The translations under genes and the position numbers were made by a program. The notes beneath the pieces were generated by a model. It was not told the DNA's origin, did not search any database, and saw only the letters and a list, made by a program, of their open reading frames with translations. Shown here piece by piece: positions 29,701 to 49,465 of a stretch of 64,000 nucleotides of DNA. Each line of letters opens with the position of its first letter. Within the stretch, counting starts at the first letter, position 1. Origin of the DNA: Octopus vulgaris (Eukaryota); contig OX597816.1 of the NCBI GenBank assembly GCA_951406725.2, forward strand, positions 19,902,001-19,966,000, given 5' to 3'.

Positions 29701-30115
29701 TGTTTCTTTCTTACCCACAAGGAGCTAAACATAGAAGGGACAAACAAGGATAGACAAACGGATTAAGTCGATTACATCGACCCCAGTGCGTAACCGGTGC
29801 TTAATTTATCGAGCCCGAAAGGATGAACGGTAAAGTCGACCTCGGCGGAATTTGAACTCAGAACGTAACGGAAGACGAAATATCTATTTCTTTACTACCC
29901 ACAAGGGGCTAAACACAGAGGGGACAAACAAGGACAGACAAACGGATTAAGTCGATTATATCGACCCCAGTGCGTAACTGGTACTTATTTAATCGACCCC
30001 GAAAGGATGAAAGGCAAAGTCGACCTCGGCGGAATTTGAACTCAGAACGTAACGACAGACGAAATAGGCTATGCATTTCGCCTGACGTGCTAACGTTTCT
30101 GCCAGCTCGCCCTCT
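29701..30115 (-). mobile_element. SINE family B dimer (one head, two bodies) with 17-bp TSD
   Basis: Two tandem bodies of about 183 bp. TSD tttgatttaatagtacc at 29684-29700 and 30116-30132. Confidence 0.92.
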
Positions 30116-38435: not shown

Positions 38436-38612
38436 AAGAGGGTGCTATATGCTTTTGTTCATATATGCATGCACATATATATGTGTGTGTGTGCGTGTGT
38501 GCGTATATATATATATATATATATAAACAACTAATAAGGGTGAGAAAATTGGCTGAAACCTAGCGGACCTATTTTTAGTGCTAGAGTAGACCACATAGTG
38601 GTTACTCTCTTA

Positions 38613-38643
<31 letters not shown>

Positions 38644-38647
<4 letters not shown>

Positions 38648-39148
38648 TGACGTATTTTTGCCATTTCAATATGGCTAACCCCTAAGGGTGGATGCTACTG
38701 TAGTTTTTAGCCCCAGGAGGACACACTCCTCCAGCTGGCCATAGACACACTATCTGTGTCCTGTCAGTATTTGCAAAGGGAAGTCATCCTTCCCGTCTTC
38801 AACTTATGATACACACGGACTCGAGTTTCGAGGTATTGACCTCTCGTCAGCGTGTGTCAATCATAGTTGTCGCCGAGAATTAGATTTCCTTCACAAATAC
38901 TTATACTTTTTCCAGCGTCCACTGTCGCTGATATTGAAAAAGTGAAATCAAACAATGATAAATATCAAAGTGAGTTATATACAGTAGCGGTAACACATCG
39001 TGACGTATTTTTGCCATTTCAATATGGCTAACCCCTAAGGGTGGATGCTACTGTAGTTTTTAGCCCCAGGAGGACACACTCCTCCAGCTGGCCATAGACA
39101 CACTATCTGTGTACTGTCAGTATTTGCAAAGGGAAGTCATCCTTCCCG
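38644..39148 (-). mobile_element. Retrozyme-like element: 353-bp unit plus 152-bp terminal redundancy, inserted in (TA)n
   Basis: 38644-38795 equals 38997-39148 with one mismatch. (TA)n on both sides. No ORF in the track. Hammerhead inside. Confidence 0.85.
38800..38869 (-). ncRNA. Type I hammerhead ribozyme with intact core
   Basis: Minus RNA: caacuaugau-ug-ACACACG CUGACGA GAGGU caau ACCUC GAAA CUCGAG UC^ CGUGUGU aucauaaguug. All core nucleotides present, GUC triplet, 7-bp stem I extended about 10 bp past a bulge, 5-bp stem II, palindromic stem III. Confidence 0.92.
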
Positions 39149-39504
39149 ATATATATATATATATTCACATGCGTACGCATACAGACACACAGACACATGC
39201 ACACACACACATACACGATGTTGTATAGCACATGTAATACATTAGCTTCTGTTAGTGATCTGAAAACACGCGACTGAGCATAAGGAAAAAGAATTACCTG
39301 ATTCTGCAGAGGATGTAATTCAGAAGAGATATTTGTACGGTACCTGTAGTAGTAGCAACAGAGCAGCTGATTGGTTGAGAAAGCATCATTGCTTTACAGC
39401 CTCATAAGAAACCCTATTCATTCTGAATATATCGAATCAACTTTCAACATATATATTATGTGCGCCTCTGTCTTCTACCACTTTCATGTTCACTTTGCAT
39501 ATAT

Positions 39505-43223: not shown

Positions 43224-43808
43224 AAGGTGGTGAGCTGGCAAAAACGTCAGCACGCCGGGCGAAGTGCTTAGTAGTATTTCGTCTGTCTACGCGTTCTGAG
43301 TTCAAATTCTGCTTAGGTCGACTTTGACTTTCATCCTTTCGGGGTCGATCAAATAAGTACCAGTTACGTACTGGTGTCGATGTAATCGACTTAATCCGTT
43401 TGTCTCTCCTTGTTTATCCCCTCTGTGTTTAGCCCCTTGTGGGTAGTAAAGAAATAGGTATTTCGTCTGCCGCTACGTTCTGAGTTCAATTTCCGCCAAG
43501 GTCGACTTTGCCTTTCAACATTTCGGGGTCGATTAAATAAGTACCAGTTACGTACTGGTGTCGATGTAATCGACTTAATCCGTTTGTTTCTCCTTGTTTG
43601 TCCTCTCTGTGTTTAGCCCCCTGTGGGTAGTAAAGAGATAGGTATTTCGTCCTTCTTTACATTCTGAGTTCAAACTCTACCGAAGTCGACTTTGTCTTTC
43701 ATTCTTTCGGGGTCGATAATTTAAGTACCAGTTCCGTACTGGTGTCGATCTAATCGACTGGCCCCCAAATTCCCAAAAGCTTTGGGCTTTGTGCCTAGAG
43801 TAGAAAAG
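43224..43808 (+). mobile_element. SINE family B trimer with a single 16-bp TSD
   Basis: One head and three bodies, each starting gtatttcgtc (about 43274, 43459, 43642). TSD aatataaagaaaatat at 43208-43223 and 43809-43824. Confidence 0.92.
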
Positions 43809-48831: not shown

Positions 48832-48910
48832 TATCACTGGAATATAAAATATTTTAATTATATAAGTGTTAACAACAAATATGACAACATCTCCAGAATT
48901 GAGTCACCCC

Positions 48911-49465
48911 AGAATTGAAGGCATGGCTACTCTCGATTATTGGGATCGCCTTAAAGCCTTGAAACTTTACTCCCTCCAGCGTCGCCGTGAGCGGTACATC
49001 ATTTGTACGATGTGGAAAATATACCGCCAACTTTCCCCAAACGACCTAAACATTAGCTTCAAGGTTCATCCAAGACTTGGACCACGGGCTATACGTCCCC
49101 TGCCAAATTCAAGATCACAACATACATGTACACTGCAACATAATTTCTTTTCCTCAACAGGCTCTGCCCTATTTAACATTGTCCCGAGGGAGATCAAAGA
49201 GGAAAATGATCCCATCAACTTTAAACAGAGTCTGGATAGATTCCTTCAAAGAATACCAGATAAGCCACCCATAATTGGATACAACTCACCCAACAAGAAC
49301 TCACTACTTGAACAAAACTGGATACAACTCACCCAACAAGAACTCACTACTTGAACAAAACTTGACTTAAACAGGATTCGAATAATCCTATCAGGTGGTG
49401 CTATTAAGTTAGACATGGCCTGGACCAATCTCTGGTCGAAACATATCTAAGTTTATCTAAGTTTA
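48911..49465 (+). pseudogene. 5'-truncated CR1/L2-group LINE (ORF2 C-terminus, 3' UTR, atctaagttt tail)
   Basis: ORF 48866-49354 reads IEGMATLDYWDRLKALKLYSLQRRRERYIICTMWKI..LFNIVP..FKQSLDRFL, the typical post-RT C-terminal region. Tail (tatctaagtt)x2. Confidence 0.9.

Follow-up and report, generated by a model that had tools for sequence, protein, structure and literature searches.

Metazoan non-LTR retrozymes, known from coral, Mytilus galloprovincialis (350-390 bp) and axolotl (330/350 bp), are built of non-coding tandem units of 150-450 bp with a GC content below 50%. According to the main text of the founding paper, each unit carries one canonical type I hammerhead with a 2-bp stem III and a tetraloop, LTR, PBS and PPT are lacking, and Penelope-like elements (PLEs) are found in the same genome (PMC7229834). 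The family described here, from Octopus vulgaris, resembles them in all these traits. By contrast with them, it occurs as dispersed copies of one to six units that sit in (TA)n, end at either of two fixed 3' sites and often carry an inverted arm. RNA circles have been demonstrated for the metazoan elements, whereas for the octopus family a circle is predicted from genome sequence. The same paper names PLEs as candidate mobilisers and, in its main text, proposes circular templates without a test (PMC7229834). The class itself is therefore already described. Our literature search covered openly readable main texts; within these texts, neither the octopus family sequence nor any description of a cephalopod retrozyme was found, and fixed ends, tails and inverted arms were not found described for retrozymes. 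In the portions consulted, a giant squid paper counts 235 Hammerhead_1 hits and goes no further, and PMC8967140 covers Penelope abundance only.

Three other systems invite comparison. EN+ PLEs, and the Neptune clade in particular, share with the octopus family 5' truncation, partial tandems, an inverted 5' arm and a tail on one end, as well as an AT-rich or (TA)n target, a type I hammerhead motif and two internal start sites, as reported in the accessible parts of Craig et al. (10.1101/2021.04.23.441226), PMC3846280 and PMC11167929. In the anole PLE, the tail is bounded by two internal start sites of the purified enzyme, a predicted dimer that can nick either strand of AT-rich DNA and extend it (PMC11167929). 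The octopus family differs from Neptune elements in having no ORF, a canonical rather than minimal ribozyme, seamless multi-unit arms and a tail of 44-48 nt, against 30-40 nt in the PLEs covered by these texts. Xenopus retrozymes, derived from PLE pseudo-LTRs (pLTRs), have likewise been proposed as non-autonomous PLE partners; as far as the preprint text goes, that case rests on co-occurrence and pLTR homology, leaves the mechanism to be worked out and favours local tandem expansion, whereas the octopus case rests on insertion structure, pLTR homology not having been found (bioRxiv 10.64898/2026.07.22.740005). Lastly, plant LTR retrozymes and TRIMs are also non-autonomous retroelements with a hammerhead and a proposed circular intermediate, but the former bear a type III ribozyme in true LTRs, a PBS, a PPT and a 4-bp TSD, in the descriptions available to us (PMC7229834; bioRxiv 10.64898/2026.07.22.740005), and no type III ribozyme, LTR, PBS or PPT is seen here.

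The insert under study occupies positions 38644-39148 of the window, the whole 64,000-nucleotide stretch of DNA analysed. Unit coordinates q1-353 run along the ribozyme strand, which is the minus strand, with q1 at 38996 and q353 at 38644. The insert is a single arm of 505 bp, equal to 1.43 turns of a 353-nt unit and read as q202-353 followed by q1-353. It comprises one full unit (38644-38996, minus strand), the predicted circle in permuted form, and an incomplete second pass (38997-39148, minus strand), the 5' end of which, at 39148 (q202), is interpreted as a random truncation point rather than an LTR boundary. The resulting direct repeat (38644-38795 and 38997-39148) is 152 nt long, with 99% identity and a spacing of 353, and its sole mismatch is a C at 38760 versus an A at 39113. 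The (TA)n target lies at 38611-38645 on the element's 3' side and an (AT)8 run at 39149-39164 on its 5' side; the initial AT of the insert may belong to target DNA, and with (TA)n sequence on both sides a target-site duplication is unreadable. The original prediction had described a 505-bp non-coding insert between (TA)n flanks, with a 152-bp repeat, one mismatch and a period of 353, all of which was reproduced.

The 353-nt unit has no ATG frame longer than 38 codons and hence no RT/GIY-YIG ORF of an autonomous PLE, and inspection by eye revealed no PBS or PPT in it. It is strongly structured, its folding reaching a z of -6.4 against shuffles (0 of 100 shuffles folded as well), and the hairpins named beforehand do appear in the predicted fold. 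One hairpin of 5 bp with a 6-nt loop (38660-38675, minus strand; second copy at 39013-39028), located about 12 nt before the short end defined below, is kept in three sister families and may serve as a recognition element. Elsewhere in the window, no evident host exon was recognised by eye among the 51 frames of at least 110 codons. A 184-bp repeat stands in tandem at 29703-30066 and 43274-43759 (2.0 and 2.6 copies); it is common in the loci examined, and we take it to be SINE-like. A 162-codon frame at 48866-49362, which presumably resembles a LINE 3' end, finishes in a perfect 43-bp duplication.

The ribozyme strand carries a type I hammerhead (38811-38857, minus strand) comprising stem I, the catalytic core CUGACGA (38844-38850) and stems II and III. 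Rfam Hammerhead_1 matched 38812-38856 over its full model length with 32.2 bits (E 5.2e-6), below the gathering cut-off of 34; in addition, the hammerhead pattern was found once in 64 kb, at 38818-38850 of the minus strand, against a chance expectation of 0.01. The complete minus-strand hammerhead put forward earlier is thus recovered at full length, though with a sub-threshold score, and a second hammerhead, looked for on the opposite strand of the unit, was not found. Stem I was paired at 97% in 13 copies. Its extension past a bulge, also put forward earlier, holds for the window copy and not for the family: the seventh pair depends on an A at 38857 (ribozyme strand) that is present in 1 of 152 passes, the other 151 having T, so this pair is private to the window copy, and stem I of the family at large has the customary 6 bp. 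For stem II, a helix of 4 bp with a 6-nt loop (38830-38843, minus strand) is preferable to the pairing first given to it. An A-U/G-C compensatory exchange occurs in this stem among 13 young and older copies, with a covariation score reached by 2 of 500 shuffles, a score that kinship among the copies inflates. The predicted cleavage and ligation site follows GUC (q179/q180, 38817-38818, minus strand), a position on which the hammerhead match and the earlier placement of the cut agree, and three insertions elsewhere in the genome break exactly there (L147, L278 and L272).

Stem III is an 8-nt palindrome (38819-38826, minus strand), which would form 2 bp and a tetraloop in a monomer and an 8-bp helix between two ribozymes in a tandem. 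A 6-bp stem I, a 4-bp stem II and a short palindromic stem III make up the canonical metazoan motif, which acts as a dimer according to the text available (PMC4209133). In line with the expectation that the palindrome favours a dimeric form, the modelled minimum-energy fold of the genomic tandem is a double hammerhead, at -152.2 kcal/mol versus -138.4 kcal/mol for two single hammerheads. The circular monomer is predicted to favour an inactive fold by 5.9 kcal/mol.

The window insert belongs to an abundant family, hereafter family A. The host genome (2.8 Gb) yielded 2358 candidate loci, 40 of which were scored and gave 158 matches, mostly 97-100% identical. Exact hammerhead cores numbered 439 genome-wide, against 0 for a control pattern, and two further unit segments had 469 and 927 exact genomic copies. 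As the first 98 exact cores, on three contigs, fell into 60 clusters, about 270 insertions would possess an exact core. Copies in (TA)n with a 353-bp period, anticipated in the original prediction, are therefore found across the genome, and the sequence is not restricted to one locus. On average, copies depart from the majority base at 0.75% of 59,256 aligned bases, in agreement with the recent activity suggested for the window copy. The core was intact in 152 of 153 cases; since these had been sampled by high identity or exact core, its integrity is no evidence of selection. The stretch occurs in 20 of 24 sequencing runs, none of which is recorded as RNA. Contigs from four runs presumed to be RNA cover the unit, one of them, of 383 nt, amounting to the period plus 30 bases; either a circle or a tandem would give this, and it is not counted as evidence. 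Each feature of non-LTR retrozymes that was looked for was present, as the first assignment had it, and we are highly confident that family A is a real, recently active non-LTR retrozyme.

To compare the ends of insertions, we mapped 104 groups and kept 81 from young loci, the remaining 23 (older copies and one fragment) standing outside the end counts. The 81 insertions offered 123 outer 3' ends: 70 short (q350-353), 42 long (q41-48) and 11 other, and (TA)n directly adjoins 107 of the 112 short or long ends. In the window, the short end is at 38644-38647 (minus strand), where reverse transcription would have started, primed from (TA)n, while the 44-48 nt "tail" between the short end and the long end, here placed at q42-47, is internal (38951-38998, minus strand). 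The 5' ends of 126 arms are by contrast scattered evenly along the entire unit, so that the 152-bp repeat of the window copy marks where its cDNA stopped. Of the permuted or tandem ends expected earlier, tandem structure and variable 5' ends were indeed seen, but the 3' ends lie at two fixed sites.

Head-to-head inversions make up 42 of the 81 insertions. A short end was paired with a long one in 36 of the 42 (34 of 40 once two duplicated loci are removed), the other six having one damaged end; short with short and long with long never occurred. Single arms were short-ended in 30 of 39 cases. Inversion joints were flush in only 3 of 41, the remainder showing mostly filler or microhomology. Among simple inverted copies, 9 of 27 had arms neither of which could derive from the other, which indicates that both arms were primed on RNA; it is for these nine copies only that an origin of the inverted arms by folding back of a single cDNA is excluded. 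PLE insertions also show a tail on one end and an inverted arm, as described in the consulted parts of Craig et al. (10.1101/2021.04.23.441226) and PMC3846280. Pairs with identical insertions and flanks, lying a few kb to 1 Mb apart (L025/L026, L072/L077, L122 and L225/L240), are segmental or assembly duplicates.

Two sister families align with family A over its full length. Family B (357 nt; L187-L216, unit at L188 1292-1648) has 1993 candidate loci at 96-99% identity, and family C (362 nt; L218-L247, unit at L246 1210-1571, minus strand) has 2724 candidate loci and a tail of about 59 nt. In all three families the short end is 172-180 nt past the cut and about 12 nt past the common hairpin. 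Short and long ends were paired in 16 of 17 inverted copies of family B and 11 of 15 of family C, with no like pairs, in samples where the B and C queries each favoured one end type and two C loci were duplicates. Family B combines a U3-G8 core with a GUU triplet, and its ribozyme should, to judge from its sequence, cut poorly, although the family is young and abundant. Family C has a U3-A8 core and a 6-nt palindromic stem III, as in the Neptune pseudo-LTR motif. Older subfamilies of family A (82-94% identity; L141-L156 and L279-L290) show U4C in the core, a variable nucleotide (A, U or C) where cleavage is predicted and an unpaired position at the foot of stem II; their ends match those of the young copies. 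Because these subfamilies and family B have spread with non-consensus cores, a perfect ribozyme may not be needed. Two further variants were observed: an older hammerhead unit with a period of about 445 nt between (TA)n runs, containing the family A stem III palindrome (L034 425-1020, minus strand), and a shorter tandem variant of family A with four matches 254-255 bp apart (G000:C24:39761460-39762248).

Candidate enzymes are present in the same genome. A search for GIY-YIG domains returned 148 matches from 150 scored of 6136 candidates, among them the first of two PLE families of Neptune type. Both families are young, with RT/GIY-YIG frames that remain open over 740-784 codons, (TA)n insertion and both short and long ends. 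Family 1 (L061-L070; 632 relatives) has a 781-codon open frame with RVT_1 and GIY-YIG domains, a CxxxxCxxC finger ahead of the nuclease, a (TA)n target, and short and long ends about 40 nt apart; a second frame, which overlaps it from upstream and reaches 479 codons, resembles no Pfam family convincingly. In family 2 (L251-L269) the longest open frames have 784 codons and the tail measures about 30 nt. One GIY-YIG exon (L048 1470-1650) ends at a splice donor, unlike the PLE matches, and probably belongs to a host nuclease gene, presumably of the SLX1 kind. The CxxxxCxxC finger marks Neptune and Nematis elements in the available text of Craig et al. (10.1101/2021.04.23.441226), and the ribozyme motifs of both PLE families have the U3-A8 core described for PLEs in the part of PMC4209133 consulted. 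The distance from ribozyme to short end is about 60-65 nt in these PLEs versus 172-180 nt in the retrozymes.

The original prediction had suggested looking for autonomous PLEs that share the termini of the retrozyme. These PLE families share its target and end structure; no significant DNA similarity to the unit was found in 40 PLE loci (150 of 6136 GIY-YIG candidates scored), and a profile search of these loci with family A copies matched only a neighbouring family C copy. By tblastn, PLE sequence was present in only four retrozyme loci, as a neighbour or a chimera. In one of them (L002, 1287/1288; also L248), a 5'-truncated copy of PLE family 2 is joined head-to-head to a retrozyme arm through 8 filler bases. 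This PLE copy ends in its own long end, the PLE does not continue beyond the retrozyme arm, and that arm ends at q96-100, which is not a fixed end; past the (TA)n, each outer flank contains a further repeat, identical in kind on the two sides but oppositely oriented. This single case is likely a co-integration of a PLE and a retrozyme. At another locus (L123, 1-2057), the 3' end of a third Neptune-type PLE adjoins a retrozyme arm, by adjacency or template switch. Likeness between the retrozyme tail and Neptune family 1 was also considered as proof of partnership and rejected, another stretch of the same PLE having scored higher; the anchored global alignment beat 4998 of 5000 shuffles, the local one was not significant (372 of 2000), and the true long end of family 1 lies about 5 nt before the motif aligned to the tail.

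PLE mobilisation, as first proposed, is nevertheless in line with the fixed 3' ends, variable 5' ends and inverted arms of the genome-wide copies, and it is very likely that a PLE drives the retrozyme. The (TA)n target, the end structure, the L002 chimera and the U3-A8 core together point to a PLE that is probably of Neptune type, the clade being a reasonable rather than a firm assignment.

The template that such an enzyme copied can be approached through the arms themselves; L026 and L077, being duplicates, were left out of the pass-haplotype, crossing and arm-copying analyses. Copying beyond one turn, which the original prediction had read from the terminal redundancy of the window copy, is well supported, as 79 of 126 arms exceed 353 nt, the longest reaching 2122 nt; the redundancy of one copy taken by itself would look alike with a circle or an uncleaved multimer as template. 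Two or more ribozymes, and two to six cleavage-site crossings, are contained in 36 of the 126 arms, and the 160 crossings showed no indel at q174-185. Successive passes within an arm disagree in 3 of 473 variable-site comparisons, and opposite arms disagree at 1 of 198 variable sites, against 24% in 5000 shuffles, none of which was as low. Moreover, 18 rare variants recur in every pass of the insertion that carries them, and 13 of these were unseen in other sampled insertions. One circle primed twice is the simplest reading of a haplotype shared across passes and arms, and we consider a circle quite probably the main template.

The best-surviving alternative keeps the PLE as driver but has it copy the linear, multimeric transcript of a genomic array that was never cleaved, circles being absent or a by-product; starting internally and truncating at the 5' end, the enzyme would produce identical arms. 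In the consulted text on the anole PLE, unprocessed RNA was the main substrate in vitro, no ribozyme cleavage was needed and start sites were alike on both strands (PMC11167929), observations that count against a circle; so does the report, in the preprint text, that 8 of 9 predicted Xenopus retrozyme dimers remained uncleaved in vitro (bioRxiv 10.64898/2026.07.22.740005). Arrays of eight or more units do exist (C2:14086562-14089409), one pass-specific variant is common to both arms of L112, in register, and families with weak-looking cores have also spread. However, the tandem is predicted to prefer the active double-hammerhead fold, a rare variant that recurs in every pass of an insertion requires that a single unit served as template at some stage, and no non-TA 5' joint is common to any two of 79 sampled insertions, unlike what copying to the parent's boundary would leave. 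Sharing in register (1 of 46) versus out of register (1 of 58) points the same way with low power. On balance, a multimeric template appears unlikely.

Still less probable is a self-cleaved linear monomer on which the enzyme jumps from the 5' to the 3' end of the same molecule. It would also account for the identical haplotype of successive passes, and some insertions do record the cut: L272 has a scar of 14 extra bases exactly between q179 and q180, and both arms of L147 and of L278 begin exactly at q180. Such cases are rare. Of the 126 arms sampled, a single one has its start within q176-184; genome-wide patterns for cut-site breaks gave 16 and 9 matches, mostly base changes in older ribozymes, and 5 insertions proved truly broken at the cut. 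Single arms starting at q180 (L151 and L277) did not exceed background, judged from a control at q199-200 whose 73 matches were confounded by a subfamily variant and in which 2 of 12 inspected were true 5' ends. Furthermore, all 160 crossings are free of indels, whereas filler or microhomology is found at most other joints that the enzyme makes. In our reading, L147, L278 and L272 arose when a cleaved, linear RNA was occasionally copied, and they are fossils of a cut made where it was predicted.

Amplification as a dispersed satellite, by unequal exchange or slippage of DNA after single insertions, has been suggested for Xenopus retrozymes (bioRxiv 10.64898/2026.07.22.740005, in the text available) and could homogenise passes through duplication; it is very improbable here, given that recombination does not yield non-integer arms, one fixed and one random end, or paired short and long inverted arms. 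Finally, a TRIM or plant-type LTR retrozyme, which the 152-bp terminal direct repeat of the window copy taken as LTRs might suggest, is refuted by repeat lengths that vary from copy to copy, the absence of a constant terminal repeat and of TG..CA ends across the family copies compared, a type I ribozyme that lies beyond the repeat, inverted arms, and arrays reaching six units.

From a mechanistic point of view, we favour, with a probability of roughly 0.7, a non-LTR retrozyme of recent origin that a PLE, most likely of Neptune type, mobilises in trans from a circle made by the retrozyme's own ribozyme. Tandem copies would be transcribed, and neighbouring hammerheads, pairing through their palindromic stems III as in the computed fold, would excise a 353-nt monomer that is then ligated into a circle. 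The PLE protein would nick (TA)n and begin reverse transcription inside the RNA at either of the two fixed sites, observed about half a turn from the ribozyme, in the manner suggested by PLE biochemistry. Copying over a random distance round the circle would leave 5'-truncated tandem arms. In about half of the insertions both target strands would be primed, each at a different one of the two sites, with a single RNA haplotype as template, and the resulting cDNAs joined head-to-head with the microhomology or filler observed, possibly by a dimeric enzyme acting on one circle. The window copy would be a single arm begun at the short site and stopped after 1.43 turns. In its most specific form, this mechanism is slightly more likely than not: the families would record rolling-circle reverse transcription, primed by the target, in which a dimeric PLE enzyme copies a circular RNA made by the ribozyme, each active site beginning at its own fixed position on a shared circle and extending one of the opposite (TA)n strands.

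The insertion record connects retrozymes with the chemistry of PLEs and speaks for a circle as template; such mechanistic evidence was not found in the texts searched. Since the family is young, numerous and short, with exact predicted starts and candidate intact enzymes in the same genome, both questions could be tested with a 353-nt RNA and one protein. If an enzyme does place multimers copied from a small RNA circle in (TA)n, it could also be useful as a tool for research. The formation of PLE tandem and inverted ends is only partly understood, according to the texts consulted (Craig et al., 10.1101/2021.04.23.441226; PMC11167929). If the proposed reading is true, the tail and inverted-arm structure of PLEs would be explained, the short structured element half a turn from the ribozyme would be an enzyme-recruiting signal, and the rolling-circle record would show directly how animal retrozymes move.
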